A stretch of 64,000 nucleotides of DNA, taken from Candidatus Nealsonbacteria bacterium (GTDB lineage: Bacteria > Patescibacteriota > Minisyncoccia > Minisyncoccales > RBG-13-42-11). A model generated the notes under the pieces. That model saw only the letters and a list, made by a program, of their open reading frames with translations. It was not told where the DNA came from and ran no database searches. Shown here piece after piece: positions 3,101-51,060 of the stretch. Position numbers and translations under genes: made by a program. Within the stretch, counting starts at the first letter, position 1; each line of letters opens with the position of its first letter. The stretch spans positions 8,939 through 72,938 of the forward strand of contig JAHXGN010000001.1 in NCBI GenBank assembly GCA_019923625.1. The letters are read 5' to 3'.

Positions 3101-3316
3101 ATGAAAGATTTATTACCTTTTTTCCAAATCGGAGTAGCTGTTTTTTTAATTATTTTTATTCTTTTGCAGCAAAGGGGAAGCGGCTTGGGCTCGGTTTTTG
3201 GAGGCGGCGGTGGGTCTTATTCCACCAAAAGAGGAATTCAGAAAAAAATTTTCTGGGCAACAATAATTTTAGGGGGGTTGTTTATTATCTTAGCCCTTCT
3301 CAATCTCATTCTTTAG
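3101..3316 (+). CDS. secG: Preprotein translocase subunit SecG
   Basis: 71 aa, two transmembrane segments with a Gly-rich loop (LLQQRGSGLGSVFGGGGGS), typical of SecG. Overlapping ORF 3031..3330 is spurious. Confidence 0.75.
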   Translation: MKDLLPFFQIGVAVFLIIFILLQQRGSGLGSVFGGGGGSYSTKRGIQKKIFWATIILGGLFIILALLNLIL

Positions 3317-3340
3317 GTCTTTACTCTTAAATTACAATAA

Positions 3341-5356
3341 ATGTCTTTTATTTTAAAAACAAAAAATTTTTTTATTTCCTTTTTGTTTAAAAAATGGCCT
3401 TCCATTTCCCAGTGGCTTCAATTGCCAGAAACGTTCAAAAAAGAAGAGAAAATCGTTTTTTCCTTTTTTTTGATTTTATTTTCAAGCTCCTTGATTTTTT
3501 TGGGAATCAATTTTTATTTTAAAAATACTCTGATTAAACCGGCTGAGGGCGGTTTTTTTACCGAAGGAGTTGTCGGTCAACCAAGGTTCATTAATCCGCT
3601 TTATGGAATTTCTGATATTGACAGGGACTTAATTGAATTGATTTTCTCCGGCCTTATGAAACATACTCTTGAGGGGAAAATCGTTCCGGATTTAGCTAAA
3701 AAAGAACCAAAAATAAAGGAAGACGGAAAAATTTTTGAATTTTACTTAAAAGAAAATCTTTTTTGGTCCGATGGCCACCCCCTGACCGCAGATGATGTTG
3801 TTTTTACCATTGAAACAATCCAAAATCCGGACCTAAAAAGCCCTTTAAGGCCGGCTTGGCTGGGAGTGGAGGTGGAAAAAATATCTGAGACAGCTATTCG
3901 TTTTAGATTGAGAAGACCTTATTTTCCCTTTTTGGAAAATGCCACTCTTAAAATAATCCCAAAGCATATCTGGCAAGCTCTTCCAATTCAAAATTTTCAT
4001 CTGGCAATCTACAATTTAAAACCGATTGGCTCCGGACCTTATAAATTAAAAAGGTTGGGACAAGACCAATTGGGAATCATTCGCTCTTTAACTTTAACGA
4101 GAAATGAGAGGTATCATGGTCAAAAACCAAATATAAAAAAAATAAATTTCATTTTTTTTGAAGAAGAAAATGACTTAATAAAAAAAGTGGAAGAAAATCG
4201 GATTGATTCTTTTTCATTGGCTCATCCTAAATATTTCAAAAACATAGATAATTCATTGCTGGTTTATCGTTTTTCTCTGCCAAGATATTTTGCCGTCTTT
4301 TTTAATCCGGAAAAATCAGAAATTTTAGCTCAAAAACAAATTAGAAGGGCTCTGAATTACGCCACTAATAAAAAAGAAATTGCTAAAAAGGTCTTTATTG
4401 AAAACACTCGGGTTGTTGATTCTCCTATTTTGCCCGATATTTACGCCATTTCTCCCCCTGATTTCACCTATCAATTTAATTTGAAAAAAGCTGAAGAAAT
4501 TTTAGATGAAATCGGCTTTTTAAAAAGAGATGATGGTAAAAGAGAAAAAATAATAAAAAAAGAACCGGCTTTTCAGTTCAAATCCAACCTCTCATTAAAT
4601 TCGCGGGGAATAGAAGTTAGAAAACTTCAAGAATGTTTAGCCGGGCTTCCGAAAATTTATCCCGAGGGTGAAATTACCGGTCATTTTGGACAAAAGACAA
4701 GGAAGGCGGTAATAAAGTTTCAGGAAAAATACCCTGAGGAAATTTTAAAACCTTTTGGGTTGAAAAAAGGAACCGGCCGGGTTTTAGAAGCGACCAGGTT
4801 AAAATTAAATGAAATTTGTTTTCCTTCAAAAGAAGAAAAAATTCCTCTTAAATTCAGCTTGGTTACGGTTAATCAACCGATTCTCAAAGAAATCTCTTTT
4901 CTTTTAAAAAATCAATGGCAGTTGGCCGGATTTGAATTAGAACTAATTTTTGTTGAAATTTCTGATTTAGAAAAAGATTTTATTAGGCCGAGGGAATACG
5001 AAGCCATTCTTTTTGGCCAGGCCATGGGGATTTTACCAGACCCTTTTCCCTTCTGGCATTCTTTACAAAAAGAAAATCCGGGTTTAAATTTAGCCCTTTA
5101 CCATAATAGAGAAGTTGATAGATTATTAGAAAGAATTAGGGAGAATCAAAATGAAGAAGCGAGAAAAAAAGAATTGGAAGAATTTCAAAATATTTTAATT
5201 GAAGAGGCGCCAGCCGTATTTTTAGTTAATCCTGATTATCTTTATTTTGTTTCCCCGAAAATTAAAGGTATAAAAGAGGGAATAATCGTTAATCCCTCAA
5301 AAAGATTTATTGAAATTGAAAATTGGTATCTTAAAACTAAAAGAGTCTGGAAATAA
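3341..5356 (+). CDS. ABC transporter substrate-binding protein (family 5, oligopeptide-type) with an N-terminal membrane anchor and an internal peptidoglycan-binding-like module
   Basis: SBP_bac_5-like sequence. The segment GIEVRKLQECLAGL...GHFGQKTRKAVIKFQEKY resembles a PG_binding_1 domain. Confidence 0.6.
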   Translation: MSFILKTKNFFISFLFKKWPSISQWLQLPETFKKEEKIVFSFFLILFSSSLIFLGINFYFKNTLIKPAEGGFFTEGVVGQPRFINPLYGISDIDRDLIELIFSGLMKHTLEGKIVPDLAKKEPKIKEDGKIFEFYLKENLFWSDGHPLTADDVVFTIETIQNPDLKSPLRPAWLGVEVEKISETAIRFRLRRPYFPFLENATLKIIPKHIWQALPIQNFHLAIYNLKPIGSGPYKLKRLGQDQLGIIRSLTLTRNERYHGQKPNIKKINFIFFEEENDLIKKVEENRIDSFSLAHPKYFKNIDNSLLVYRFSLPRYFAVFFNPEKSEILAQKQIRRALNYATNKKEIAKKVFIENTRVVDSPILPDIYAISPPDFTYQFNLKKAEEILDEIGFLKRDDGKREKIIKKEPAFQFKSNLSLNSRGIEVRKLQECLAGLPKIYPEGEITGHFGQKTRKAVIKFQEKYPEEILKPFGLKKGTGRVLEATRLKLNEICFPSKEEKIPLKFSLVTVNQPILKEISFLLKNQWQLAGFELELIFVEISDLEKDFIRPREYEAILFGQAMGILPDPFPFWHSLQKENPGLNLALYHNREVDRLLERIRENQNEEARKKELEEFQNILIEEAPAVFLVNPDYLYFVSPKIKGIKEGIIVNPSKRFIEIENWYLKTKRVWK

Positions 5357-5357
5357 A

Positions 5358-6233
5358 ATGAAAATTAAAAAAGCAGTCATTCCAGCGGCTGGCTGGGGAA
5401 CAAGATTTTTGCCCCAGACAAAAGCCATTCCAAAAGAAATGCTGCCTATTGTGGACAAACCGGTGATTCAATATGTGGTTGAGGAAGTGGCAAGTTCCGG
5501 AATTAAAGATATTATTATCATTACCGGTTGGCAAAAAAGGGCAATTGAGGACCATTTTGACAATTCTTTTGAATTGACCAAATTTTTGGAGACAAAAGGC
5601 AAAGAAAAGGAAATATCCGAAATTAAAAAAATTTCTCAATTGGCCAATTTTATTTATCTTCGTCAAAAAAGCGAGTATTATGGAAATGCCATTCCGGTTT
5701 TAACCGCCGAACCGGTTATCGGCCAAGAACCGTTTGTGGTCATTTGGGGTGATGAATTTATTTTGTCTCAACCGCCAAGATTATGGCAAATGCTGAATGT
5801 CTATGAAAAAAGAAAGGGTATAATAATTTCCGGCGTCAGAATTAAAAATAAACAAGAACTCTCTCGATATGGTATTGCTGAAATAAAGCCCCTGAAAGAT
5901 AATATTTTTAAAATTAAAAAAATAGTGGAAAAGCCGTCTCCAAAAGAAGCTCCCTCTAATTTGGCAACTCACGGAGCTTATATTCTTCCGCCTGAGATTT
6001 TTAAGATAATTAAAAATATGAAGCCCGGCCAGGGAGGTGAATTTTGGTTGGTGGAGGCTATTAATCAATTGATTAAAGATGGTTTTCCGGCTTTTGCCTG
6101 CGAAATAAAAAATGGAAAATATTATGATACCGGCAATAAACTTGAATATTTAAAAACAGTGGTTGAATTTGCCCTCTCTCATCCCGAACTTTCAAAAGAA
6201 TTTAAAGAGTTTTTAAAAAATTTAAAATTTTAA
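5358..6233 (+). CDS. galU: UTP--glucose-1-phosphate uridylyltransferase
   Basis: N-terminal KAVIPAAGWGTRFLP nucleotidyltransferase motif. Start placed at the internal ATG 5358 (MKIKKAVIPAAG), not the overlapping upstream ATG. Confidence 0.8.
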   Translation: MKIKKAVIPAAGWGTRFLPQTKAIPKEMLPIVDKPVIQYVVEEVASSGIKDIIIITGWQKRAIEDHFDNSFELTKFLETKGKEKEISEIKKISQLANFIYLRQKSEYYGNAIPVLTAEPVIGQEPFVVIWGDEFILSQPPRLWQMLNVYEKRKGIIISGVRIKNKQELSRYGIAEIKPLKDNIFKIKKIVEKPSPKEAPSNLATHGAYILPPEIFKIIKNMKPGQGGEFWLVEAINQLIKDGFPAFACEIKNGKYYDTGNKLEYLKTVVEFALSHPELSKEFKEFLKNLKF

Positions 6234-6338: not shown

Positions 6339-8018
6339 ATGACAATACAACCTAATCTTCGTTTAATTCCATTGGGTGGACTAGGAGAAGTGGGAAGGAA
6401 TATGATGCTTTTGGAATGGCAGAATAAAATCTTAATTATTGATGCCGGTCTTCGTATGCCGGAAGAGGGAATGCCGGGGATAGATTATATTATTCCCAAT
6501 ATCTCTTATCTGCAAGGAAAAGAGAAAAATGTTTTAGGAATAATTTTTACCCATGGCCACTATGACCATTTGGGCGGCCTTCCTTATTTGCTTTATCGTT
6601 TTCCTTTTCAAAATTATCCTATGTTTGCTTCGGGCTTAACTCAGGCCATTATTTTAAAAAGGCAAGGTGATTTTCCTTTTCAACCAAAATTAGAAATTGA
6701 AAGGGTAAAAGACGGTTCAAAAATTCAAATAGGGCCTTTTAAAATTGAATTTTTCAAACAGAATCACAATATTGCCGATAATTTGGGTCTTTTTATTGAA
6801 ACGCCCCTCGGCAATATTCTACATACTTCTGATTTTAAGTTTGATGAAAATCCGGTAAATGATTTACCAACCGATTTCAGAAAATTGAGAGAGTTTGGCA
6901 AAAGGGGTGTTTTGCTTTTAATGTCGGATTCAACCGGAGCCGAAGAAAGCGGTCATTCTTTTTCGGAAAAAGAAATTTTTGAAAACTTAGATAAAATTTT
7001 TAAATCAGCCAATGGCAGAATTATTGCCGCCACCTTCGGTTCTCTAATTAATAGAATTCAACAAATTATCACTCTGGCTGAAAAACATCAAAGAAAAGTG
7101 GCTCTTGATGGTTATACGATGAAAAGCAATGTTGAAATTTGCCGACAATTCGGCTATTTAAAAATAAAAAAAGATACTTTAATTAAGCCGAAGGAGATTA
7201 AAAATTATCCCGACCAAAAAATAACTCTTCTTTGTACCGGCGCTCAAGGAGAACCAGAAGCGGTTTTGATGAGAATTATCAACAAAGAATATAAATTCTG
7301 GCGTCTTAAAAAAGAAGATGTTGTTATTTTTTCTTCTTCGGTTATCCCGGGAAACGAAAGAACGGTTCAAATAGTCAAAGATGAGATTTTACGTCAGGGC
7401 GCTCAGATTTTCCATTATAAAATGATGGATATTCACGCCGGCGGCCATGCTCAACAGGAAGAACTGAAAGAAATGCTCAAAATAATGAAGCCGAAATTCT
7501 TTTTGCCAATTCACGGTCAATACTCAATGTTGGTCGCTCACAAACAATTAGGTAAAAATGTCGGGTTGTTAGAAAAAAATATTTTGGTGGCAGAAAATGG
7601 TCAAATTATTAATTTAAACCAAAAAAGAATTTTTATTGAAAAGGAAACCGCGCCCTCAAATTATATAATGGTTGATGGTTTAGGGGTTAATGATGTTGGT
7701 GAGGTTGTTTTAAGGGATCGTCAGATATTGGCTGAGGATGGAATGTTTGTTATTATAACCATAGTAGATAGACAAACCGGAAAAGTAAAAGGTTCACCGG
7801 ATATTATTTCCCGGGGATTTGTTTATTTAAGAGAGTCAAAGGAATTATTAAGAATAACCAGAAAAAGAATAATTGAAATTATTGATAAAGCCACTTTAGC
7901 CGGCGGTCCGGTAAATATAATTTATCTTAAAGATGAAATTAGAAATAAAATCGGCGATTTCTTATTCTCTAAGACCGAAAGAAGACCGATGATTCTGCCG
8001 GTAGTTATTGTCGTATAA
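6339..8018 (+). CDS. rnj: Ribonuclease J (metallo-beta-lactamase/beta-CASP RNase)
   Basis: HGHYDHLGG motif and beta-CASP region. Start placed at ATG 6339 (MTIQPNLRL) so it does not overlap the tRNA. Confidence 0.8.
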   Translation: MTIQPNLRLIPLGGLGEVGRNMMLLEWQNKILIIDAGLRMPEEGMPGIDYIIPNISYLQGKEKNVLGIIFTHGHYDHLGGLPYLLYRFPFQNYPMFASGLTQAIILKRQGDFPFQPKLEIERVKDGSKIQIGPFKIEFFKQNHNIADNLGLFIETPLGNILHTSDFKFDENPVNDLPTDFRKLREFGKRGVLLLMSDSTGAEESGHSFSEKEIFENLDKIFKSANGRIIAATFGSLINRIQQIITLAEKHQRKVALDGYTMKSNVEICRQFGYLKIKKDTLIKPKEIKNYPDQKITLLCTGAQGEPEAVLMRIINKEYKFWRLKKEDVVIFSSSVIPGNERTVQIVKDEILRQGAQIFHYKMMDIHAGGHAQQEELKEMLKIMKPKFFLPIHGQYSMLVAHKQLGKNVGLLEKNILVAENGQIINLNQKRIFIEKETAPSNYIMVDGLGVNDVGEVVLRDRQILAEDGMFVIITIVDRQTGKVKGSPDIISRGFVYLRESKELLRITRKRIIEIIDKATLAGGPVNIIYLKDEIRNKIGDFLFSKTERRPMILPVVIVV

Positions 8019-14910: not shown

Positions 14911-17181
14911 TTAAACTTTTTGCCATCCATCTTCCCCTTCTTGATCCCCTTCTTGAGGGTCAATAGGGGGGAATGAAGATTTATCTTCATCTAACGACTC
15001 AAAATAAACCTCTCTTGGTTTGGCGCCGTCAGCCGGCCCAACAAGTCCTTTTTTTTCTAAAATATCAAGGAGTCGAGCCGCCCGGGCATAACCAATTCTT
15101 AATCTTCTTTGCAATAAAGAAGCAGAGGCCTTTCTAGCTTCAATTATTATTTTTTTTGCTTCCTCATAAAGAGGGTCATTTTCCCAAAAGTCATCCTTTT
15201 CATTTCCTGAAAATTGTAAGTCCCGACCCAAATCCTTAGTCAATTCATTTTCTAAAATTTTTTCCTCAAATTTAAATTCATCTCCCCTGCTTTTTAATTT
15301 TAACCAATTAACCACTTTTTTTACCTCTTTTTCCGAAACATAAGAGGCCTGTATTCTTTTGGGTTTGGCGGTTTCAGCCGAAGCATAAAGTAAATCACCG
15401 GCTCCTAAAAGTTTTTCCGCTCCGGCCATATCCAAAACCGTCCGGGAATCAACCTGAGAAGCAACTTGAAAAGTAATTCTGGAAGTAATATTGGCTTTAA
15501 TCAAACCGGTGATGACTTCCACCGAAGGTCTTTGGGTGGCAACCACTAAATGAATGCCAACTGCTCTGGACATCTGGGCCAGCCGGATAATACCGGCTTC
15601 TACTTCCCTGCCTTTGGCCGCCATCAAATCCGCTAATTCGTCAACAATTACGACAATATAAGGAAGAACCGGAATTTCTTCTTTAAAAGCTATTTCATTG
15701 TAACCCCTGATATTTTTGGTTTTAGATTGAGACAAAATTTCAAACCTTCTTTCCATTTCGGAAACCAGCCAGGAAAAAGCATTTACTGTTTTTTGGGCAT
15801 TGTAAATTACCGGAGATAAAAGATGGGGAATATCGTTGTAGACCGGAAACTCCACTCTTTTTGGGTCAATTAAAATAAATCTTAAAATTTCCGGCTGTCC
15901 CCCAAAATGATTGAAATTGGTTGGCGGCCGAAAAAGCAAACTTAAAATCAAAGAGTTTAGAAAAATTGTTTTGCCCGTGCCCGTACTGCCTGCCACCAGA
16001 AGATGGGGCATTTTGGCCAAATCGGCATAAACTGGATTTCCGGAAACATCTCGACCCAAAACAATCATTAAATTAGATAGTCCTTCCTGAAAAATCCTGT
16101 TTTCAATTAAATTTCTCAATTTGACTTGGGCCCTTTGTTTATTGGGTATTTCAATCCCGACTACCGATCTTCCGGGAATAGGAGCTTCAATTCTAATTGG
16201 ATGACTGGCTAAAGCCAAAGCCAAATCATTGGAGAGGGTGGTTATTTTTGAAAGTTTTATTCCTTCGGCCGGTTTTAAAGTATATTGAGTAACGGTCGGA
16301 CCGATATTAACTTCTGACATTTCAACCGGAATATCAAAATTTTGTAATGTTTTTTTAATAATGGCTGAATTTAATCCGATATCGCCGCTATTAGGAATTT
16401 CGGTTTCAGGCTCTAATAAATCTAAGGAAGGAGCCTGATATTCGGAGGTCTTTAATTGGATTAATGGTTTTGTTTTCAGCTCAACCGGTTTTAATTCAAC
16501 TCCAGTCCTTACCTCCTCTCTGGGTTGGGCTAGCGGTAGAATTTCTTTTATTTTAAACTTCGGTTCTGGCTGCTTGATTATTTTTTTGACTAATTTATTA
16601 ATCAAACTTTGCTTTTTTTCAATCTTTCCTTTTTCCAACTTATCTTTTTCCAACAAGGGCGGAAAAAATAAATACCAAAAAATCAAAACAGCTATAAAGA
16701 AAAAACCGGTTAAAACCAATTGGGTTACCCAAAAACCGAAAATTTTAAGAAAAGGACGGCTAAAATAACCGATATATCCGCCGATCCGATATCCTGGTCT
16801 TAAACATTCCAAAGTTCCTGAAATAGAAAAAATAAAAAAAAGAATGGCTAAAAGAAACAGCCCCCAAAATTTTTTTTCTTTACTATAAAAAAACAACAAT
16901 CCGCCTATGGCTAAAAACAAGGGAAAAATGAAAATCGTTCCTCCAATCAAAAAATAAATATTTTTAACTAAAAACTCTCCACCCGGACCAGCCAAATTGA
17001 AAAAAGAAAGGATTAAAATTAGAGCCAGCAAAAACATCAAAATCACTACCATCCATTTTTTAATGTTTTGGGGTAAAATAAAAAGAGAAAATCTTTTTTC
17101 TTTTGAATTTTTGAGAAGTATTTTTTTTGGCTTTTTATTTTTATTGGGCATTATTGAACATTTGATTTTATAATACCACAT
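14911..17181 (-). CDS. ftsK: DNA translocase FtsK/SpoIIIE (N-terminal transmembrane segments, motor domain, gamma domain). The C-terminal tail carries a family-A repeat fragment
   Basis: GSTGTGKT Walker A and gamma-domain winged helix. The tail DEDKSSFPP is encoded by gatgaagataaatcttcat. Confidence 0.85.
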   Translation of the reverse strand: MWYYKIKCSIMPNKNKKPKKILLKNSKEKRFSLFILPQNIKKWMVVILMFLLALILILSFFNLAGPGGEFLVKNIYFLIGGTIFIFPLFLAIGGLLFFYSKEKKFWGLFLLAILFFIFSISGTLECLRPGYRIGGYIGYFSRPFLKIFGFWVTQLVLTGFFFIAVLIFWYLFFPPLLEKDKLEKGKIEKKQSLINKLVKKIIKQPEPKFKIKEILPLAQPREEVRTGVELKPVELKTKPLIQLKTSEYQAPSLDLLEPETEIPNSGDIGLNSAIIKKTLQNFDIPVEMSEVNIGPTVTQYTLKPAEGIKLSKITTLSNDLALALASHPIRIEAPIPGRSVVGIEIPNKQRAQVKLRNLIENRIFQEGLSNLMIVLGRDVSGNPVYADLAKMPHLLVAGSTGTGKTIFLNSLILSLLFRPPTNFNHFGGQPEILRFILIDPKRVEFPVYNDIPHLLSPVIYNAQKTVNAFSWLVSEMERRFEILSQSKTKNIRGYNEIAFKEEIPVLPYIVVIVDELADLMAAKGREVEAGIIRLAQMSRAVGIHLVVATQRPSVEVITGLIKANITSRITFQVASQVDSRTVLDMAGAEKLLGAGDLLYASAETAKPKRIQASYVSEKEVKKVVNWLKLKSRGDEFKFEEKILENELTKDLGRDLQFSGNEKDDFWENDPLYEEAKKIIIEARKASASLLQRRLRIGYARAARLLDILEKKGLVGPADGAKPREVYFESLDEDKSSFPPIDPQEGDQEGEDGWQKV

Positions 17182-17214
17182 TTTAAAGGGTAAAGTTCGA
17201 TTTCCCGGACCGAT

Positions 17215-17400
17215 TTCAGAAGTGAGGCAATAAGTTTCAAGGCAGCTTTCGCAGGCTTGTTGGCATGGTTCCCGAACAAAGTGAGGGACAACAAGCCGAG
17301 AACGCAGGCTGTAAAATCTCGCTGGGATTTTAACAGCCGGTGACTTGAAACTTGATTGCTGAGCTTCTGATGCTTTAAGCTAAATTACGAACAAATAGGT
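17215..17400. ncRNA. Family-C structured intergenic element, copy E3, between ftsK and rpoC
   Basis: Shares the GTGAGGCAATAAGTTTCA 5' end, a GCATGG core, CGAGAA...TCTCGCTGGGATTT, and nested stems showing compensatory changes relative to the 29040-29210 and 45222-45370 copies. Confidence 0.5.
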
Positions 17401-17427
17401 CCGTTTTTCAGACTTTACCCTTTTAAA

Positions 17428-19242
17428 TTATTTTCTAAAGCCGGTTCCGGCCGGGATAAGACGACCAATGATGACATTTTCTTTCATTCCTAAGAGTTTA
17501 TCTTCTTTTCCCTCTAAAGCCGCTTTGATTAAGACCCGCGATGTCTCTTGAAAAGAAGCAGCTGATAAAAAACTATCAGTAGTTAAAGCCACCTGGGTAA
17601 TTCCCAATAAAAGGGGAATGCCAACAGCTATTTTTTTGTTTTCTTTTTTAAGGACATTGTTTATTTCCTTGAATTTGCTTTTTTCTAAAATTTCACCGGA
17701 GATGAAATTACTATCGCCCGGATTTTTAATCTTGATTCGGGAAAACATTTGTCTGGCTATTATTTCCAAGTGTTTATCGTGAATAGCGACGCCCTGAGAA
17801 ACGTAAATTTTTTGAATTTCTTTTATAATATAATTCTGAGTTTTTTCTTTATTGGTCAGTTTAAATAATTCTTTTAAGTCCAAACTGCCTTCGCAAAGTT
17901 GTTGACCCTTTTCAATATTTTCACCTTGTTTCACCCAGATAGAGAAATTAATTGGAGTTTTGTATTCAATAATTTCCGACTTTAGAGTTTTATTTTTTAT
18001 TTTTATTATTCCCTCTTGAAGAACTTCCAAAACTTTTCCGTCCTCTTTGGATATCTCCGCTTTTCCTTTCGGGATTCTTAGTTCAAAAATTTCCTGAACC
18101 CGAGGCAAACCGGAAGTAATATCCACCCCTCCGGCCACTCCGCCGATATGAAAGGTTTTCATTGTTAATTGGGTTCCCGGCTCCCCGATCGATTGAGCGG
18201 CTAAAACTCCGACGGCTGTTCCCAATTTAACCATTTGATTTGAACCCAAATCCCAGCCATAACATTTTCGGCAAATACCCCTGATTGTTTTACAAGTTAA
18301 AGGAGAACGAACCCTTACTTTTTCCGTTCCTTTTTTAATAATTTCCTCGCCTTTCTCTAAATCAATAATTTCTCCCTTTTTTATAATTCCCCTTATCTCG
18401 TCTAAAATTACCCGACCAATGATTTTTTGAAGAAAATTTTGGCCGATTTCCTCTGCCTCTTTTTTAAAAATCTCAATTCCTTGTTTGTCTCCGCAACTCT
18501 CTTCGCTTACCATTACTTCATGACTAACATCAACCAATCGTCTGGTTAAATAACCGGCTGTTGAGGTCTTTAGGGCCGTATCGGCCACTCCCTTTCTGGC
18601 GCCATGAGTGGAAATAAAATATTCCAAAACACTCAAACCCTCTTTGTAAGAATTTTTAACCGGCAACTCAATGGTTTGACTCATTGGATTAATCACCAAT
18701 CCTTTCATTCCGGTCATTTGAGTTAATTGGGTCAGGGAACCCCTGGCCCCGGCTTCAATAATAGATAAAACAGAACTGTCCCCTGACAGGGTTTGAGGGA
18801 CTAATTTTTCAATTTCTGATTTTGTTCTTTGCCAAACTTCAATCGTCCTGTCTTTCTTTTCTTCCTTGGTCAAAAAACCATCCTTAAAATATGATTCAAT
18901 TTTTTCAATTTCTTTTTCGGCTTCTTCAATGATTTTTGGTTTTTGGGTCGGAATAATTAAATCGTCCATGCCAAAAGAAACTCCTGAAAGCGTTGAATAT
19001 TCAAACCCCAAATCTTTAATTTTATCTAAGGTTTTTTCAACTTTTTCCAAGGGATAATCTTTAATAATTCCCGAAACTATTCTTTCCAAATCTTTGGTTT
19101 TTATGGTCGTATTTTGGAAAGGAAAACCCTCGGGCAGAATCTGATTAAAAATAATCCGGCCGACGCTTGTCTCAAGAAAGTTAGTAGTCATTCTGATTTT
19201 AATTTTGGCTCTTAAATCAATTTGACCATGTTCATAAGCCAA
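17428..19242 (-). CDS. rpoC: RNA polymerase beta' subunit, C-terminal part (downstream frame of an interrupted rpoC)
   Basis: Beta' conserved regions (NADFDGDQM is in the upstream part; here [13 protein letters not shown] and others). The ORF-track start codon is TTG and the segment continues in frame from upstream. Confidence 0.8.
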
Positions 19243-20834
19243 TAGGGCTTCTTCGAAATTTCCAAAAAATTTTTCGGAGGGCGAAGAGACTTCGGACCGG
19301 TCGCCGGTTTCAGTAAATTCAAACTTGATGACATAATTTTTCTGGATTCTTCTTGGGCTTCTTCGGAAAGAGGAAGGTAAACCGCCATCTGATCACCGTC
19401 AAAATCGGCATTATAAGCCTTACAAAACAAAGGATGAAGTTTTATTGCTTGGCCTTCAATTAAACGCGGTTCAAAGGACTGAATCCCCAATCGATGAAGG
19501 GTGGGAGCCCTATTTAATAAAACAAGTTTGTCTTTTACCACCTCTTCCAACGATTGCCAAACCACCTCTTGTTCTTCTTCAATTAACTTGGTAGCCGCCC
19601 TAACATTAAAAGCCAGTTCTTTTTCCAGAAGTTTTCTGATAATAAAGGGTTTAAATAACTCTAAAGCCATTTTTTTAGGAATGCCGCATTCATGAAGTTT
19701 TAACTCCGGACCGACAACAATAACGCTTCGACCGGAATAATCAACCCTTTTTCCCAAAAGATTTTGTCTGAATCTGCCCTGTTTTCCTTTAAGCATATCG
19801 GCTAAAGATTTTAAAGGCCGTTTTCCGCCGGTTGTCGCCTGAGTAGTCACTCTTTTTCTCATCGGATTGTCAATTAAAGAATCAACTGCTTCTTGAAGCA
19901 TTCTTTTTTCATTTCGAACTATTACTTCGGGAGCCCCTATTTCTAAAAGATATTTTAAGCGATTGTTTCGATTAATAACCCTTCGGTAAAGGTCGTTCAG
20001 GTCAGAAGAAGCATATCGACCGCCGTCTAACTGAACCATCGGTCTTAAATCCGGAGGTAAAACCGGCAAAACAGTTAAAAACATCCATTCCGGACTAATT
20101 CCTTTTTCCTCCATTCCTTTAAAAAATCTTAATCTTATTAAAATTTTTCTTTTTGTTTCCGGTGTTTTTGTTTCTTCCAGAACTTTTTTTAATTTTTCAA
20201 TTTCTTTTTTAAGATTAATATTTTCAAAAATTTTCCTTAGGGTCTCCGAGCCAGTACCGGCTTCAAAAACTTCGCCGTATTTTAAAGATAAGTCTTGATA
20301 CTCCATCTCAGATAAAACCTTCAGGGGTTTAATTGACAACACCTCCTCGAACGCCCTATCCCTCGCCGACTTTAATTCTCCCAGCTTTGGTTTTTTAAGT
20401 TTTAAGTTTTTAGTTTTAGTTTTGCGCTTTGAGCTTTGCTCTTTGAGCTTTAATTTGTATTCTTTCTCAATTTTTTCCAAAATTTTCTTTTTCGCCTCCC
20501 CAGAGACCCTGGTAATAATGTAAGCCGTAAAATAAATTACTCTGGCTAATTTGATATGACCCATTCTTTCCCGCCTAACTTGAGATTTCGTTACTTCCAC
20601 CCCGCAACGGTCACAAACCACTCCTTTATAGCGGATTCTTTTGTATTTACCGCAATAACACTCGTAATCCTTTTCCGGTCCAAAAATTTTTTCACAAAAA
20701 AGACCGTCTTTCTCGGATTTCTGGGTTCTATAATTTATTGTTTCTGATTTTGTCACCTCACCGCGGCTCCAGCTTAAAATATCTTCTGGTGAAGCTAATT
20801 TTATTCTTATGGTTTTTAAATCTTCTACTCTCAT
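19212..20834 (-). CDS. rpoC: RNA polymerase beta' subunit, N-terminal part (upstream frame). Ends 31 nt inside the downstream part after a -1 frame break
   Basis: Zn-finger CxxC...Cxx[12 protein letters not shown] and [11 protein letters not shown] motifs. Frames join at ccgAAAAATTTTTTgg, around 19228-19243. Confidence 0.8.
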
Positions 20835-25159: not shown

Positions 25160-26095
25160 TATGGACTATACCATTTCCCGTATTTAGTACGGGACCAGCG
25201 TTTAATGATGGGTTGTACCATCATTTAACTCTCTTAACCCTAGCAAGAGTTAAGTCTCTACGGGGTACGAGTACTAATTTTTGTAACTTCACTGAATAGG
25301 GTAAAATACTTTCCAAAAATTTTTTCACCTCATAACGAGAAATATAAAGACAAAATGTTTTCGCAGTTTTGTAGTAATAAACTCTTACATTACTAATGCC
25401 AATTCTTTTAAGAAGCTCTTTATCTTTCTCAGCTTCACCTTCTCTCCCATAAACAATCCGACAATCATTCCGTAAGTTTTTATCAATTGAACCATCTCCA
25501 TCGAATCTGCCAGCGAAATAGGCTTTTATTATATTCTCTTTCTCTTTCTTTAAACTTTCTAAATTAGCTTTAGCTCTTCTAAATTCTCTCAATAATGGAC
25601 GACTATTTACGAATAAATGGTTCCGGTTAAACTTTATTCTGTTTTTTGGAAAAATTCTTTTCAAAAATTTTCTAAACATTTCAATTAAATCAGGGTTGGT
25701 ATTACTTAATCCTACTGAACTTGCCCACCAATAACTGTCAGCGCACCAAAGACCGAGAATATAAGCGTCTTTCTCGTTTGAGAAGAAATTACAAAAATTA
25801 GTACTCGCACTTCCCACGGTGTTGCCCACCCCGCCCCCTAAGCTGTTTTTCAAGTTTTTTATTTCCATAATATATTCTTCTATTTTATCAAGAATATAAC
25901 CAATATTAAACAGCACAGGGGGCGGGGCTCGGGTTTCACCGTTATGAGCTGGTTTTTCATCGTGGATTACTCCACGAGGGGTCGTATCCCGCCCTCTAAG
26001 CCCGTCGAATTTTTATTTAGCGAATAATAAGATTTAATTTCTAATTGATTTCGCTTACTATTATTCTACGAGCATAGAGGGCGGGACCAACCATG
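25160..26095 (-). mobile_element. About 0.93-kb insertion (intron-like) in 16S after GGTGCTGCATGG (E. coli position ~1052), encoding a double-motif LAGLIDADG endonuclease (boundaries approximate)
   Basis: The 16S exon sequence resumes at GTCGTCAGCAGGTGCC. The insertion begins with the family-D hairpin tcccgccctcta...tagagggcggga. Confidence 0.6.
25221..25916 (-). CDS. LAGLIDADG homing endonuclease (two motifs: LGLWCADSYW and YFAGRFDGDGSI)
   Basis: Motifs read directly from the ORF translation. The ORF lies inside the 16S insertion. Confidence 0.75.
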   Translation of the reverse strand: MLFNIGYILDKIEEYIMEIKNLKNSLGGGVGNTVGSASTNFCNFFSNEKDAYILGLWCADSYWWASSVGLSNTNPDLIEMFRKFLKRIFPKNRIKFNRNHLFVNSRPLLREFRRAKANLESLKKEKENIIKAYFAGRFDGDGSIDKNLRNDCRIVYGREGEAEKDKELLKRIGISNVRVYYYKTAKTFCLYISRYEVKKFLESILPYSVKLQKLVLVPRRDLTLARVKRVK

Positions 26096-26262: not shown

Positions 26263-26374
26263 TCCCAGGCGGGACACTTAACGCGTTAGCTTCGCCACTT
26301 GAAGGGTCGACACTTCAAATAGCTAGTGTCCATCGTTTACAGCGTGGACTACAAAGGTATCTCACTTTTGTTAC

Positions 26375-26925
26375 TTTCCTCCGTAAGCGGAGGAGGGATA
26401 GAGCATTTCTGTCTATCTCTCTACGTCGCCGTAGAGGTCGGACTATATCTTTATCTCAATTGAATTGACAACTGCTCTATAAAATCCATCTGTAATTATG
26501 CCAATTCTTATCCGTTCTTTATCCAGTCCAAATATATTCACCATACAATCTCGAAATAGTTGAATGAGAATTTCTGACGAGTTCGAAAAATAAATCCTCC
26601 AACTATTTTTCTTTTTAGGAGAAACACACCCATCAGTAAATAATATTGCCAATAGAGAAGCAAGGTCTTTACTTATCTGTTTTGAGATATCTGGCATATA
26701 GTCTCTGAGGATCCCGAACACATGATGCTTTATGTGCTGCGGTTTCCTGCTGATTGTCTGCACTAGTAGCTTTGTCACTTAAAGAGATAATTAATATAAT
26801 AATTATAACATATAAGTAGCTCTAGATACACAGGTTTTCCAGCATATAGCCAGATTATTTCTTCCTCCAAGACAAGGAAGGGATCCAAAAACTTCGAGAA
26901 TCAAACCGCGGTATGCGATGTCTTT
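26375..26925 (-). mobile_element. About 0.55-kb insertion in 16S near the GGATTAGATAC|CC region (position ~790), encoding a short single-motif LAGLIDADG protein (boundaries approximate)
   Basis: 16S sequence GAAAGCGTGGGGAGTAAAAAGGATTCAAGAGGATAC is interrupted here and resumes at GATACCTTTGTAGTCCACGCTGTAAACGATG. Confidence 0.55.
26443..26778 (-). CDS. LAGLIDADG-family protein (single motif LLAILFTDGCVS), possibly degenerate
   Basis: Motif in the translation. The ORF lies inside the 16S insertion. Confidence 0.55.
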   Translation of the reverse strand: MTKLLVQTISRKPQHIKHHVFGILRDYMPDISKQISKDLASLLAILFTDGCVSPKKKNSWRIYFSNSSEILIQLFRDCMVNIFGLDKERIRIGIITDGFYRAVVNSIEIKI

Positions 26926-28381
26926 TATTCTCGAGTATCCTCTTGAATCCTTTTTACTCCCCACGCTTTCGTCTCTCAGCGTCAGATCCGTTCCAGCTGA
27001 TTGCCTTCGCTTTTGGGGTTCCAGTCGATATCAACGGATTTCACCCCTACACCGACCATTCCATCAGCCCCTAACGGCCTCTAGTTAAGTAGTTTCTAGG
27101 GCACTCTTCAGGTTAAGCCCGAAGTTTTTAACCCTAGACTTACCAAACCGCCTACAGACTCTTTACGCCCAATAAATCCGGATAACGCTTGGGGGCTCTG
27201 TATTACCGCTGCTGCTGGCACAGAGTTAGCACCCCCTTATTCCTGGAATAATGTCACCCCGCCCCCTAGGCTCATCACCAAAGCTATCTAATTCACCACG
27301 TTAAAAAAAGATAATGAAACTAGATAAACTTAGTCACGAGCATAGGGGGCAGGGTTCTTCCTCCAGAAAAGCTCTTTACACCCCGAAGGGTTTCTTCAAG
27401 CACGCGGCGTCGCTGGTTCAGGCTTTCGCCCATTGACCAATATTCTCGGCTGCTGCCTCCCGTAGGAGTGGGGCCCGTGCGGTCATGTTCTCACACCGCC
27501 TACCCGTCATCGCCTTGGTGAGCCATTACCTCACCAACTAGCTGATAAGCCGCAGACCCATCCCTAAGCAGTTCTTGCGAACCTTTTACCAGGAACCGAT
27601 TTATATCTGTAAGAACTGCTCGGAATTTCCATACTTACAAACACAAATCGGTTCCCGGATCATTGGGTATTAGCTTGTCTTTCGACAAATTATTCCCATC
27701 TCAGGGGTTGGTTATCTACGTGTTACTAACCCGTTCGCCATTAGCCAATGCTCCGCATTGGCACGCTGATTTACGCGGATTAGGGCTCGCTTCGCTCGCA
27801 ACGCGGATTTACGCGGAAAAATTATCCGCGTTTATCCGCGTCCGGTTGCAAAGCAACCGCCAATCTACGTTTATCCGCGTGTCAGTGCGAAGCACTGACT
27901 CATACGACTTGCATGCCTTATCCACGCCGCCAGCGTTCATCCTGGACCAGGATCAAATCCTCAATAATACGCTGAAGTTGCGCTGAAAAAAGATTTCCGC
28001 TGAATTTTAATCAACGTACTCATCAGCGTCATATCAGCGGTGTCCCCGTAAGGGGACATTCGGGACAACTCAAAAAAACTAAATGAACGATAGTGAATTT
28101 ACCATTCACTCCGTTCCGATTCAATTTTCAAGGTTCTTTCCTTTTTATGTTTTTCTTCCCCGGTATTACTACCCGAAAAAGAAAATAATCAACAACTGCA
28201 ACACTTTTTCTTTTTTGTTTTCTTTGCCATGTTTTCTTTATTCTTTTACTTGTCTTTAAATTTTACTTTTTAAAAAAACTTTTGTCAAGTCCAGTCTTGT
28301 ACAACAAGATGAGCCCCAAATGAAAGCCATTTCTAACGCAAAACGACCCTGAAATTTGTGTTGAAAACAGCGGAGAAGAGA

Positions 28382-29010
28382 CTATATTTCTTCAATTTTC
28401 TTTTTAAAATCTTCCCATTTAATATTTTTTCCGCCGGCCAACTTACAAATTTCAAAAAATTCGCAATATTGACATTGCCAGCCCGTTGGAAAGACCGATA
28501 ATCTTTCGGGAAGAATATTTGCTTTAATTTTTGATTTTAATTCTTCAAAATTAATCAAAAGTTTATTGACTAATTTTTAATTCCAAAATAATGGAGATAG
28601 AGCTGAATTTGATAAGAATCTTCTATTTTCGGTTCTGTCATTTTTTCCAAATTCATTCGGCCGCTGATACTTTTAATATCTAAAACATAGGGTTCTCCTT
28701 CAAGGCTGATAATAGCATCGGCCCGGCCGGAAACTATTTCCTGAGGAGGAATATCAATCTCAGTTGCCCTTATTAACCTTAAACTGATAAGGGGTCTTAA
28801 AATTAATTGATGAATATAGTTTCCGTACTCAAATAATCTTAATTTTTCAGCTTCAATTTCTTTGGCCGGAGCTTTCTTAAATCTAAAAAAAATACTTCTC
28901 GGACATTTTCCAGCTTCACTAATATAAAATTTGGCTCTTTCTTTGTTCCTTCTTTCATTTTTTTCTCTTTCTTTATCCAAATAAAGTTTATCAATAAGTT
29001 CCTTTAACAT
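28382..29010 (-). pseudogene. Cas4-family (RecB-like PD-(D/E)xK, DUF83) nuclease gene split by a -1 frame break
   Basis: The 146-aa ORF (28570..29010) carries the Cas4 N-terminal Cys motif (EAGKCPRS) and the motifs EYGNYIHQ, GRADAI, EGEPYVLDIKS and the QxxxY motif (YQIQLY). After its TAG stop, a -1 frame continues ...WQCQYCEFFEIC..., supplying the Cas4 C-terminal C-x2-C-x5-C Fe-S cysteines, down to TAG at 28382-28384. The frames overlap at the run ggaattAAAAAttag. Confidence 0.65.
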
Positions 29011-29039
29011 ATAAAATAATTACGCGCTTGCCGAGCGGA

Positions 29040-29210
29040 TTTATTCTTATAACAGGAGCGAGGCAATAAGTTTCAGAGTAAATTTCGCAGGTCTGTTGGC
29101 ATGGCTCCCGACAAAGTCGGGACAACAGACCGAGAATTTAGATAGTCAAATTTCGCTGGAAATTTGAACTATCGGTACTCTGAAACTTCGTTGCCGAGCG
29201 GATTTACCGT
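29040..29210. ncRNA. Family-C structured intergenic element, copy E1, downstream of rpsI; flanked by direct repeats TTGCCGAGCGGATTTA at 29027 and 29193
   Basis: GAGCGAGGCAATAAGTTTCAGAG ... CTCTGAAACTTCGTTGCCGAGCGG, with nested stems ggtctgttg/caacagacc and tcccgac/gtcggga. Confidence 0.5.
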
Positions 29211-43383: not shown

Positions 43384-43600
43384 AAAAATTTAAGCGAGTT
43401 AAGCGAGGCAGGGATATTCACAACCGAGCCCCGAAAAGATTTAAGCGAGGCAGGGATATGAGGGTGACACTTCGCAGCCGAGCCCCGGAAAGATTTGAAA
43501 TTTTTTTAAGACTGGTGAGGCTCGGCGAGAAATAGCAGCAGCGGGAATAACTTTCTCTTACTATTAAAGCTGACTGCGTGTCACCCGAATCAGCCCTGCC
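43384..43600. repeat. Family-C-related intergenic element(s) between rplF and rpsH (AAGCGAGGCAGGGAT... x2 ... CAGCCCTGCCGAGCG)
   Basis: Shares the conserved ends of family C. Confidence 0.6.
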
Positions 43601-43608
43601 GAGCGACT

Positions 43609-45182: not shown

Positions 45183-45221
45183 AATCCTACGAATTACGAA
45201 TAAGTACGAATATACGAATAA

Positions 45222-45370
45222 TAAGCGAGGCAACAAAGTTTTCATGGTAACTTTCGCAGTCCCGCCAGCATGGTGCCGCCGAAGGCGGCTGGCGGGACGA
45301 GAATGTAGATAGTCAAATCTCGCTGGGATTTGAACTATCGGTACCTGAAAACTTTAGTTGCCGAGCGTTA
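45222..45370. ncRNA. Family-C structured intergenic element, copy E2, between rplX and rplN
   Basis: AAGCGAGGCAACAAAGTTTTCA ... GCATGG ... CGAGAATGTAGATAGTCAAATCTCGCTGGGATTTGAACTATCGGTAC...TTGCCGAGCG. The stems gtcccgccag/ctggcgggac and tgccgcc/ggcggc co-vary with E1 and E3. Confidence 0.55.
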
Positions 45371-48270: not shown

Positions 48271-49086
48271 TTATTTCTTCTTTTTCTTCGGTTTGCGTCT
48301 TTGAATAATATATTTATTGGTCCATTTCTTTTTTTTCCTCGTCTTTTTTCCAAGAGCTGGTTTTCCCCAGGGAGTTTTGGGATGTTTTAAACCAATTGGT
48401 GTTTTCCCCTCTCCGCCACCATGGGGATGGTCAACCGGGTTCATTGCCGTCCCCCTGACGGTGGGCCGCCAACCCTTTAATCTCCTTCTTCCGGCTTTTC
48501 CGATAATTTCAAAACGATGCTCGGGATAAGAAACCACTCCGACCGTAGCATAACATTCTTGTAAAATTTTTCTAACCTCACCTGAGAACATTTCTAAATG
48601 AGTGTATTTACCTTCCCGGGCTAAAATTTTGGCCGAAGCGCCGGCGCTCCTTATTAATTTTCCACCCTGACTAGGATTCAATTCTATATTGTAGACCAAT
48701 GTTCCGACCGGAATATTTTTTAATTTCATTCTGTTGCCGATTTTAACTTCAGTTTTTTCAGCGCAAATAATTTCATCGCCGATTTTCATATCTTTGGCTG
48801 CCAAAAGATATCCTTTTTTCCCATTTTGGTATTCTATTAAAGCAATAAAAGCCGTCCGATAAGGGTCATATTCAAAAGCCAGAATTTTGCCGGCAAGGCC
48901 CTTTTTTTCCTGACCAAAATCTAAAATCCGGTATAATTTTTTTACTCCCCCGCCCCGGTGACGAATGGTTATCCTGCCAGAACACGCTCGACCGGCTCTT
49001 TTTTTTAAAGAGATAAGCAATTTTTTTTCTGGCTCTTTTTTTGTAAGTAATAAATGCTTTTTCATAAAAATGTTTAAGCCAGGCAA
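48271..49086 (-). CDS. rplB: 50S ribosomal protein L2
   Basis: L2 signature ([16 protein letters not shown]). Confidence 0.9.
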
Positions 49087-49320
49087 GTGGTTTCAGTGAG
49101 CTAGCCTCGCTGGGGCGAGCGAACGACCCTGAAACCAGCTTGCCGAGCGATTATCCAGCTAACCAGAAAAAATAAAAGCGAGGGAAGTAATTTTTAGGAG
49201 CATCCGCAGCCGAGCGGGCAAGGTCTCGCACTCAGCGAGGAGCGAGGCGAGGACATGAGCGAACGAACACGCTGGGTGAGTGAGCGTATCCTAAAAATTA
49301 GCCTGCCGAGCGATTATCGT
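49081..49320. repeat. Two family-C-like elements in the rplB-rplW spacer, each with ...GCGAGG/GCCAGGCAA + stem ... stem + (C/T)TGCCGAGCGATTATC ends
   Basis: Arm pairs gtggtttcag/ctgaaaccag and gaagtaatttttaggag/ctcctaaaaattagcc. Confidence 0.6.
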
Positions 49321-50924: not shown

Positions 50925-51060
50925 ATAGCAGATTTAAAATAACGGAGGACAGTCCTCCGTATCTAAGATATGTAAGAATCCCGAGTGTTGTTTACACTTT
51001 TTTGAGCGAGGCAATAAAGTTAAAATAACGGAGGACAGTCCTCCGTATCTTAGATCTGTG
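50925..51060. repeat. Two direct copies of a 40-bp unit (aaataacggaggacagtcctccgtatct.agat) containing the palindrome ggaggac/gtcctcc, separated by a family-C 5' end motif (GAGCGAGGCAATAAAG)
   Basis: Seen in the rplC-rpsJ spacer. Confidence 0.7.

Follow-up and report, generated by a model that had tools for sequence, protein, structure and literature searches.

Family C, a structured interspersed repeat of Patescibacteria distinct from classical MITEs and REP elements

What is the branched, intergenic element that lies between the ribosomal protein L14 and L24 genes of a Candidatus Nealsonbacteria genome, and in which molecule does its fold matter? The element, here termed Family C, recurs in a 64,000-nt stretch of contig JAHXGN010000001.1 (assembly GCA_019923625.1, positions 8,939 to 72,938; hereafter the window). 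It is a structured interspersed repeat, neither a classical MITE (miniature inverted-repeat transposable element) nor a REP element, and is widespread in the Patescibacteria (candidate phyla radiation, CPR). Its copies duplicate rarely, recombine, nest, decay and persist for a long time, and survive almost only between genes, usually 0-4 nt past a stop codon and occasionally in frame. The explanation we favour, with a probability of roughly 0.45, is that Family C is a non-autonomous interspersed repeat, akin to REPIN, ERIC and RPE but with a branched architecture that is new, whose folded single strand serves as the substrate of a trans-acting enzyme.

Fold and covariation

The repeat unit of approximately 145 nt forms a three-way junction (Y) comprising a closing stem (P1) and two hairpins (P2 and P3). 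Minimum free energies (MFE) of -76, -70 and -51 kcal/mol were obtained for the three full copies in the window (z = -9.6, -9.6 and -4.5), and the elements have a GC content of 46-51% versus 35-37% for the genome. The consensus ends are (A/G)AGCGAGGCAA...TTGCCGAGCGA, and homology between copies ends at the base of P1. Toward P2, a 3-bp UUC/GAA helix is followed by a GCA/GA internal loop, after which come 9-11 bp of P2, a conserved 7-nt 5′ bulge (GCAUGGU) and a variable apical hairpin. P3 is closed by the loop CGCUGG, with the variant CGCAGG in some lineages. The junction UUUCGCAG belonged to the search pattern, and its invariance in the fetched copies is thus partly a matter of ascertainment; the motifs of P3 and of the junction that follows it lay outside that pattern, yet are more than 90% conserved.

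Covariation was evaluated on 35 copies, each less than 80% identical to any other, aligned with MAFFT without structural information. RNAalifold recovered the same Y de novo from this alignment, with pairing in 94.5% of the cells and double compensatory changes in 47/51 pairs, a level reached by none of 500 shuffles, while partners slid by 1-3 columns pair at 28-46%. After fitting to a covariance model (CM), 51/53 pairs show double changes. Furthermore, the pairs of P3, P2 and P1 rank top by structure-blind mutual information among 130 copies, with P2 being the strongest covarying stem. With at least ~170 copies from other genomes added the covariation is overwhelming, and the helices are under selection for complementarity. 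The compensatory internal stems quoted in the initial annotation are real, and the two checks it had proposed, folding with RNAalifold and a covariation analysis across the aligned copies, returned the Y and strong covariation, respectively.

Involvement of the GCAUGGU bulge or the CGCUGG loop in a pseudoknot or tertiary pairing was also considered; a mutual-information scan revealed no non-nested covariation beyond subfamily linkage. Mini-ORFs (open reading frames; 9 codons in the minus and 12-22 in the plus strand) result from the conserved spacing between CAUG and UGAAAC and were rejected: their peptides show no conservation, and diverged copies lack the AUG.

Strand selection and orientation

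Of the two strands, the model (+) strand gives the more stable fold in 104/111 copies when RNA parameters are used (mean difference 7.9 kcal/mol) and in 109/111 with DNA parameters. The non-Watson-Crick cells within the helices comprise 75 G.A/A.G versus four C.U, and one U.G is conserved. Because of this asymmetry in stability, the excess of G.A and the conserved U.G, one strand must be considered the selected one. Relative to the neighbouring ORFs the model strand is antisense in 133 and sense in 13 cases (n = 146, p = 3e-26; ~10:1), a count which leaves out the subfamily carried by a MITE. GC skew across the window left the directions of replication and transcription inseparable.

G-U occurs in 57 cells, with a further 26 at one conserved pair, versus 45 cells with A-C, and makes up 3.5% of the cells with the conserved pair included. 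In a typical structured RNA, G-U is expected at ~10% or more. No positional enrichment of -10-like hexamers was observed upstream on either side of the copies, no terminator-like U tract was found after P1, and the 5′ flank lacks conservation, even where copies share a locus. This profile is unlike that of a normal small RNA (sRNA) gene or a cis-regulatory mRNA structure, and folded single-stranded DNA (ssDNA) fits at least as well as RNA. The earlier claim of selection on RNA structure stands for the complementarity of the helices and is not supported for RNA as the selected molecule, folded ssDNA being compatible with these data as well.

Distribution in Patescibacteria

Copies were retrieved by an exact-pattern scan of one genome per species in GTDB, together with a metagenome scan, and the matches were then confirmed with a CM. 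The species scan yielded 76 stretches, 49 of them confirmed, and nearly all confirmed matches derive from metagenome-assembled genomes (MAGs) of Patescibacteria, namely Nealsonbacteria, Staskawiczbacteria, Saccharibacteria, Beckwithbacteria, Minisyncoccia and the 'Parcubacteria group', several of these genomes being multi-copy. A few contigs labelled Gammaproteobacteria, Nanoarchaeota or Psychracetigena have a GC content of 36-53% and ordinary bacterial genes, and may be mis-binned. The metagenome scan added at least 120 stretches, almost all model-confirmed and mostly from groundwater and sediment, bringing the copies beyond the window to at least ~170 (Patescibacteria MAGs and groundwater metagenomes). 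Matches to two patterns in viral contigs are not family members, and blastn revealed no match in plasmids or phages.

At the gathering threshold, Rfam 15 identified only rRNA, a group I intron and tRNA in the whole window, while the three full copies gave only chance matches at E <= 10 (best 19.9 bits versus a cut-off of 71). The search against this database that had been proposed at the outset hence places Family C in no Rfam family, even at E = 10, with HEARO, IS605-orfB, 6S and the riboswitches among the models covered. No earlier description was found in the literature on CPR, Saccharibacteria and Parcubacteria, and the family is apparently previously undescribed. In a public metagenome assembly of the same species (99.6% identical to the window), a run of N occupies exactly the S8/L6 element (locus L001, 12274-12539); repeats of this kind therefore break or gap assemblies.

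Copies in the window

Three full copies, three diverged copies and several fragments, all on the plus strand, are present in the window (Table 1). Two CMs, R1 built from the three full window copies and R2 from 35 diverse relatives, each recovered the identical six plus-strand copies and nothing further, with E-values (R1/R2) of 1e-33 to 1e-42 for the full and 1e-12 to 2e-3 for the diverged copies. The copies and fragments are packed into 35 kb, and the 5′-end motif occurs three times against 0.13 expected by chance. All copies are enclosed by minus-strand gene pairs (rpoC/ftsK, S9/unknown ORF, S8/L6, L14/L24 and L23/L2).

The sequences described for Family C in the initial annotation are all present in the window, and the intergenic siting inside minus-strand operons that it had proposed holds for all window copies, as judged by the Pfam-named flanking genes. 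Its copy labels E1, E2 and E3 were mismatched with the coordinates, with stem ggtctgttg belonging to the 29-kb, gtcccgccag to the 45-kb and ggcttgttg to the 17-kb copy. The consensus ends that it had assigned to all three full copies are replaced in the 17-kb copy by GTGAGG...GCTGAGC. Degenerate relatives had been placed near 43, 49 and 51 kb: those near 43 and 49 kb correspond to three CM copies, while the one at 50990-51010 reduces to an 18-nt fragment.

Table 1. Family C copies, structural parts and associated features. Positions refer to the window unless a fetched locus (L018 to L130) is given; CM scores are for R1 / R2.
Feature	Position	Strand	Details
Full copy (L14/L24)	45223-45370	+	149.5 / 142.6 bits; MFE -76.1 kcal/mol, z -9.6
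Setting of this copy	45368-45370	-	L14 stop codon on one side, L24 start on the other (Pfam)
P1, 5′ arm	45225-45249	+	Pairs with 45342-45366, 22 bp; tandem G.A beside GGCAA/UUGCC
Conserved junction UUUCGCAG	45252-45259	+	UUC pairs with GAA of CGAGAA (45298-45303); invariant in alignments
P2 hairpin	45259-45298	+	P2a 45259-45269/45288-45298; 5′ bulge GCAUGGU 45268-45274; P2b 45274-45277/45284-45287
P3 hairpin	45308-45339	+	14 bp; one conserved bulged A (3′ side); conserved U.G by loop CGCUGG (45321-45326)
Junction after P3, CGGU(AC)	45339-45344	+	Conserved
P1, 3′ arm	45342-45366	+	From the fold; all P1 pairs covary
Full copy	29056-29203	+	159.1 / 143.7 bits; abuts S9 stop codon (29204-29206)
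Solo 3′-end remnant TTGCCGAGCGGATTTA	29028-29043	+	Left member of a 16-bp direct repeat
Full copy, core within MITE	17220-17368	+	
MITE, 233 bp	17188-17420	+	Terminal inverted repeats GGGTAAAGT.../...ACTTTACCC; carries core 17220-17368
Diverged copy	49176-49315	+	49.3 / 47.9 bits; GCAAGG replaces GCAUGG; abuts L23 stop codon
Mini copy	49076-49152	+	P1 and a P3-like hairpin; P2 deleted
Diverged copy	43443-43608	+	31.2 / 38.8 bits; abuts S8 stop codon
Two partial 5′ fragments	43392-43400 and 43401-43442	+	Stacked before the 43443 copy (direct reading)
5′-end fragment GCGAGGCAATAAAGTTAA, 18 nt	51006-51023	+	
In-frame copy, UvrD	L080 2798-2941		144 nt; 48 residues inserted cleanly between helicase motifs II and III; sense
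In-frame copy, CarB	L042 5386-5529		
In-frame copy, GT4 glycosyltransferase	L045 1123-1273		
In-frame copy, MiaA	L018 4125-4314 (= L130 5182-5371)		Sense

Other short repeats adjoin some of these copies. The 45-kb copy is separated from the Shine-Dalgarno sequence and start codon of L24 by four tandem TATTCGTA-like units (minus-strand sense; 45196-45222), and a comparable ATTACGAA string is found in the 3′ wing of the 17-kb MITE. A further repeat with a ~35-nt unit, in which a terminator-like hairpin ACGGAGGACTGTCCTCCGT is followed by TATTTTAA, is present in two copies (50942-50960 and 51028-51046, minus strand) in the S10/L3 intergenic region, where they flank the 5′ fragment of Family C.

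Position at gene ends

In 63/116 antisense copies, the stop codon of the gene on the 3′ side is offset from the model end by -4 to +2 nt, such that the base of P1 lies 0-4 nt past the stop. This abutment is specific to one end of the element and is observed in 0/15 sense copies. Read in the sense strand, the usual gene end is TAA-TC-GCTCGGCAA. On the 5′ side a spacer is retained, with a median of 46 nt in antisense and 61 nt in sense copies. Many copies reside in ribosomal-protein operons and certain sites recur across genomes, namely those after rpsI (8 genomes), after rpsG (5) and also after rplW. The site of the 29-kb copy after rpsI is occupied in seven other genomes, and the gene downstream of rpsI is also common to three loci.

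A 146-aa ORF at 28570-29010 (minus strand) has no Pfam match; its GRADAI ... LDIKS motifs and N-terminal Cys give it a putative resemblance to PD-(D/E)xK nucleases. A matching gene starts after S9 and the element in two other loci (L104 and L127).

Absence, decay and in-frame copies

Related genomes differ in their occupancy. In a relative sharing 78% L2 identity, the S10-spc operon is likewise present, with intergenic regions of 5-12 nt and no element, while in another (76% L2 identity) copies are confined to S7/fusA and L23/L2. Among the roles initially considered, that of an RNA-processing or regulatory module needed by the host is unlikely in view of these empty 5-12-nt intergenic regions in the operon of close relatives. 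A third relative with 87% L2 identity (locus L003) has no CM match. This closest other species, from the same metagenomes, has long intergenic regions at S7/fusA (638 nt; 865-1503), fusA/tuf (467 nt; 3194-3661) and L4/L23 (348 nt; 6781-7129), none with a CM match, and the end motifs alone match at 5975-6220 (minus strand). Further repeat families, or copies that have diverged strongly, may reside in these long regions.

Copies are further found truncated, stacked and nested, and solo ends occur; together with the patchy occupancy, these traits are closer to those of dispensable, selfish DNA than to those of an ordinary RNA gene. Compared with the 151-nt copy that a relative carries at the same L23/L2 site (L007, 9839-9989), the mini copy at 49 kb has lost P2, and P2 has been swapped as a module among otherwise near-identical copies. 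Extra end motifs flank copies in the same orientation in 19/158 cases and in the opposite orientation in three. Full copies also lie within older ones (L066/L123, L100 and L150 4471-4619), flanked upstream by the 5′ part and downstream by the 3′ arm of the older copy, which suggests repeated insertion into, or replacement within, resident elements.

Among 171 copies, four distinct loci (~3% intragenic) harbor the element in frame and free of stop codons within conserved genes, two per orientation, adding ~48-64 residues to the encoded proteins (Table 1). That stop codons are lacking in every intragenic copy favours translation through the element, as in the RPEs of Rickettsia, over its removal at the RNA level.

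The MITE-borne subfamily and target sites

The 17-kb copy is carried by a MITE bounded by a 7-bp target-site duplication (TSD), TTTTAAA (17181-17187 and 17421-17427). Near-identical copies of this MITE number at least seven in Nealsonbacteria Unc1 contigs, where they occur in both orientations with differing 7-bp AT-rich TSDs. One subfamily of Family C has thus been amplified as cargo of a MITE with terminal inverted repeats (TIRs) and TSDs. A TSD had initially been assigned to the 16-bp direct repeat TTGCCGAGCGGATTTA, of which one member (29028-29043) is a solo 3′ end and the other (29191-29206) the conserved 3′ arm of the element itself; this repeat moreover brackets the 29-kb and not the 17-kb copy, and a genuine TSD surrounds only the latter.

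For the core family, a TA or TAA target duplication was considered, as TAA-like triplets border both ends, and was rejected, with the flanks of a copy sharing no more direct repeat than re-paired flanks do. Flanking dinucleotides, including TA, are not conserved. Insertion into existing palindromes or hairpin loops was likewise discarded, the complementarity of the flanks (4.30) being in marginal excess of the control (4.07 +/- 0.11). No Y1 transposase was found among the window ORFs scanned.

Comparison with known repeats and recombination sites

MITEs, ERIC and Correia repeats occur at gene 3′ ends, are co-transcribed and affect mRNA stability, with orientation mattering for this effect in ERIC and Correia, while the RPE is a Rickettsia repeat of 105-146 bp (PMC3184786). 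Family C resembles REPIN/REP-BIME elements, of which RAYT is the HUH Y1 transposase, in its extragenic siting at gene 3′ ends, its multi-copy nature and its long imperfect hairpin, as well as in the lack of a TSD, the long persistence, the low activity and the conservation of structure in one strand. It differs, however, in lacking a GTAG-type motif and in forming a 145-nt three-way junction with conserved junctions rather than a doublet of 20-40-nt palindromes. Its host is also distinct (Patescibacteria), and no RAYT gene was identified in the 8-20-kb loci or among the window ORFs.

With the ERIC (IRU) and Correia (NEMIS) repeats, Family C shares imperfect palindromes of 100-160 bp in transcribed intergenic regions that are conserved across genera. 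The TA target duplications of these repeats are absent from Family C, however, which in addition shows the 10:1 orientation bias and the branched fold, and by eye no similarity was seen to the ERIC sequence. RPEs were reportedly observed in frame within ORFs by Ogata et al. in 2000. Family C, likewise palindromic, is also in frame and stop-free in UvrD, CarB, GT4 and MiaA, but only ~3% of its copies are intragenic and its host lineage and sequence are unrelated. As in classical MITEs, copies are short, numerous and without an ORF, and have TIRs, represented by the ~22-bp P1 in all copies. Unlike these, the Family C core has no TSD, no cognate insertion sequence was found in the 8-20-kb loci, the orientation is non-random and the interior is conserved through its structure, by compensatory change. 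The absence of a TSD together with a strand bias is shared with the PATE elements derived from IS200/IS605, which have distinct subterminal LE and RE hairpins in place of TIRs, but the long TIR formed by P1 contradicts a PATE, and instead of the fixed 4-5-nt target that PATEs have 5′ of LE a stop codon is found at a variable 0-4 nt from the end, with no fixed junction.

The attC sites of integrons follow ORF stop codons, conserve structure over sequence, contain extrahelical bases and have a folded strand that is antisense to the ORF. Family C differs in lacking an invariant AAC/GTT core (the corresponding P1 pair is CG in 15, UA in 13 and AU in six copies), cassette arrays and intI, and in residing in core operons. 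Retron ncRNA, which also forms a Y with an a1/a2 closing stem, was rejected as Family C has no adjacent reverse transcriptase, is multi-copy and lacks the AGC branch context. The omega-RNA of TnpB/IscB, or a PATE, was judged unlikely on account of the lack of a nearby TnpB and an orientation opposite to that predicted from lagging-strand targeting.

Interpretation

We suggest that a trans-acting enzyme recognises the folded single strand of Family C, most likely as DNA, when copying, moving or homogenising the element, and that the fold would be kept because of this recognition. The 10:1 antisense bias could then reflect either strand-specific insertion or the purging of copies that would place the strongly folding strand in the operon mRNA. 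In the prevailing antisense orientation, the message would contain the weaker, complementary Y, and a double-strand RNase might cleave its ~22-bp stem, or the stem might shield the 3′ end of an mRNA. A mobile structured element, or a MITE with structure, as raised in the initial annotation, comes close to this explanation. Several observations nevertheless weigh against it. The longest direct repeat shared by the flanks of a core copy averages 3.29 versus 3.23 +/- 0.08 in re-paired flanks, and no TSD is thus apparent, because of which the core family is not a classical MITE and its mobilising mechanism is wholly inferred. Clustering of the flanking ORFs of 45 loci revealed no transposase or other recurrent neighbour gene, only housekeeping genes, and the fetched loci of 8-20 kb contain no convincing pair of ends enclosing an ORF, as expected of a long 'autonomous' form. 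Only five clusters of copies from different loci with >=93% identity exist among 162 copies, and recent activity is therefore low in what is an old and slow family. The nucleotides of the junctions and loops, although unpaired, show the high conservation typical of functional RNAs. Furthermore, copies after rpsI in five genomes are 66-88% identical, where the S9 coding DNA reaches 63-74% and the adjacent spacer 43-57%, a pattern resembling either purifying selection on the locus or concerted evolution through homogenisation by other copies, and the one-sided abutment of the stop codon is not fully explained by selection for the least harmful site. The substrate explanation accounts poorly for both this abutment and a same-locus conservation equal to that of a ribosomal-protein gene, and the two leave room for more novel readings of Family C.

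These last two features are those that would favour a host-selected cis element of operon mRNAs, a 'punctuation' that acts as an RNase III-type site or protects 3′ ends and so tunes neighbouring cistrons, as for REP, ERIC and Correia repeats. The placement of P1 just past the stop in 63/116 antisense copies, the recurrence after rpsI, rpsG and rplW, the frequency of copies in ribosomal-protein operons and the precedent of co-transcribed 3′-end repeats affecting mRNA stability (PMC3184786) are in line with such a role. The mRNA strand, however, folds worse by ~8 kcal/mol in 104/111 copies and turns the conserved non-Watson-Crick positions into C.A and C.U/U.C; in related genomes these operons are free of the element, copies have decayed and lost P2, and in-frame copies occur within proteins in both orientations, making this role unlikely. 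An independently transcribed plus-strand small RNA, serving as a multi-copy protein-binding scaffold or as a cis-antisense RNA convergent with the upstream gene, would explain why the tandem G.A, the conserved U.G, the bulged A and the conserved junctions and loops reside in the model strand, why GC content is elevated (46-51% versus 35-37%), and why the 5′ spacer (median 46/61 nt) leaves about the room for a promoter while the 3′ end abuts the gene. We nonetheless regard it as decidedly unlikely given that positioned -10-like hexamers, a conserved 5′ flank even at shared loci and a U-tract terminator after P1 are all lacking, G-U is unusually rare (3.5% of cells) and copies are found truncated or in frame within genes.

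The lack of a TSD, the strong strand bias and the Watson-Crick-dominated stems could also be expected of a folded-ssDNA recombination site, attC-like or a Xer/HUH substrate, at which a recombinase inserts or exchanges DNA at gene ends by way of the Y of the non-coding strand. By analogy its anatomy would be that of attC, with copies placed after stops, conserved structure, extrahelical bases and an antisense folding strand. Such a site is very unlikely, as the P1 pair corresponding to AAC/GTT varies, the copies lie in housekeeping operons and not in cassette arrays, the flanking ORFs include no integrase, and the gene content near copies is ordinary conserved synteny. Least probable is a small self-cleaving ribozyme or retroelement-derived mobile RNA, harmful in sense and hence biased to antisense. 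A three-way junction with invariant junction nucleotides and the depletion of sense-oriented copies would agree with it, but no Rfam model, those of hammerhead, twister, hairpin, hatchet, pistol and HDV included, gave a match even at E = 10, the junction strands do not fit the cores of the hammerhead, the hairpin or the k-turn by eye, no reverse transcriptase is found in the flanks, and translation proceeds through the sense copies in UvrD and MiaA, the absence of stops from every intragenic copy speaking against cleavage or removal of the RNA. Finally, the Y may be the working form of a new CPR-specific structured nucleic acid, either a multi-copy sRNA (possibly catalytic, or a protein scaffold or guide) whose transcription runs antisense to core operons, or the folded-ssDNA substrate of an undescribed strand-specific recombination or copying system that places it exactly at stop codons. 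We consider this doubtful; if true, conservation of same-locus copies at the level of a ribosomal-protein gene would reflect function and not concerted evolution.

The CPR have tiny, streamlined genomes of which the non-coding DNA and mobile elements are little known. Family C, with ~50 covarying pairs, is absent from Rfam, extends from Saccharibacteria to Nealsonbacteria and is found inside the most conserved operons of the cell. If selfish, as the substrate explanation holds, it would represent a long-lived 'replicator' of new architecture, with an enzyme still to be found, and a practical problem for assembly, whereas a functional Family C would constitute a new class of RNA or ssDNA. The covariance model is already useful for the annotation of CPR genomes, where it flags the 48-residue insertions in UvrD and CarB.

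Other features of the window

Only model positions 9-873 of the 16S rRNA gene (26268-27960, minus strand) are matched in the stretch, and the gene is interrupted by a group I intron (26419-26914) and several long insertions. A LAGLIDADG homing-endonuclease ORF (25221-25916, minus strand) is located just downstream. Introns and insertions of this sort are typical for CPR rRNA genes. The rpoC gene is represented by two overlapping minus-strand ORFs, 17428-19242 (604 aa, with Rpb1 domains 3-5) and 19212-20834 (540 aa), which could be due to a split gene, a frameshift or an assembly error.

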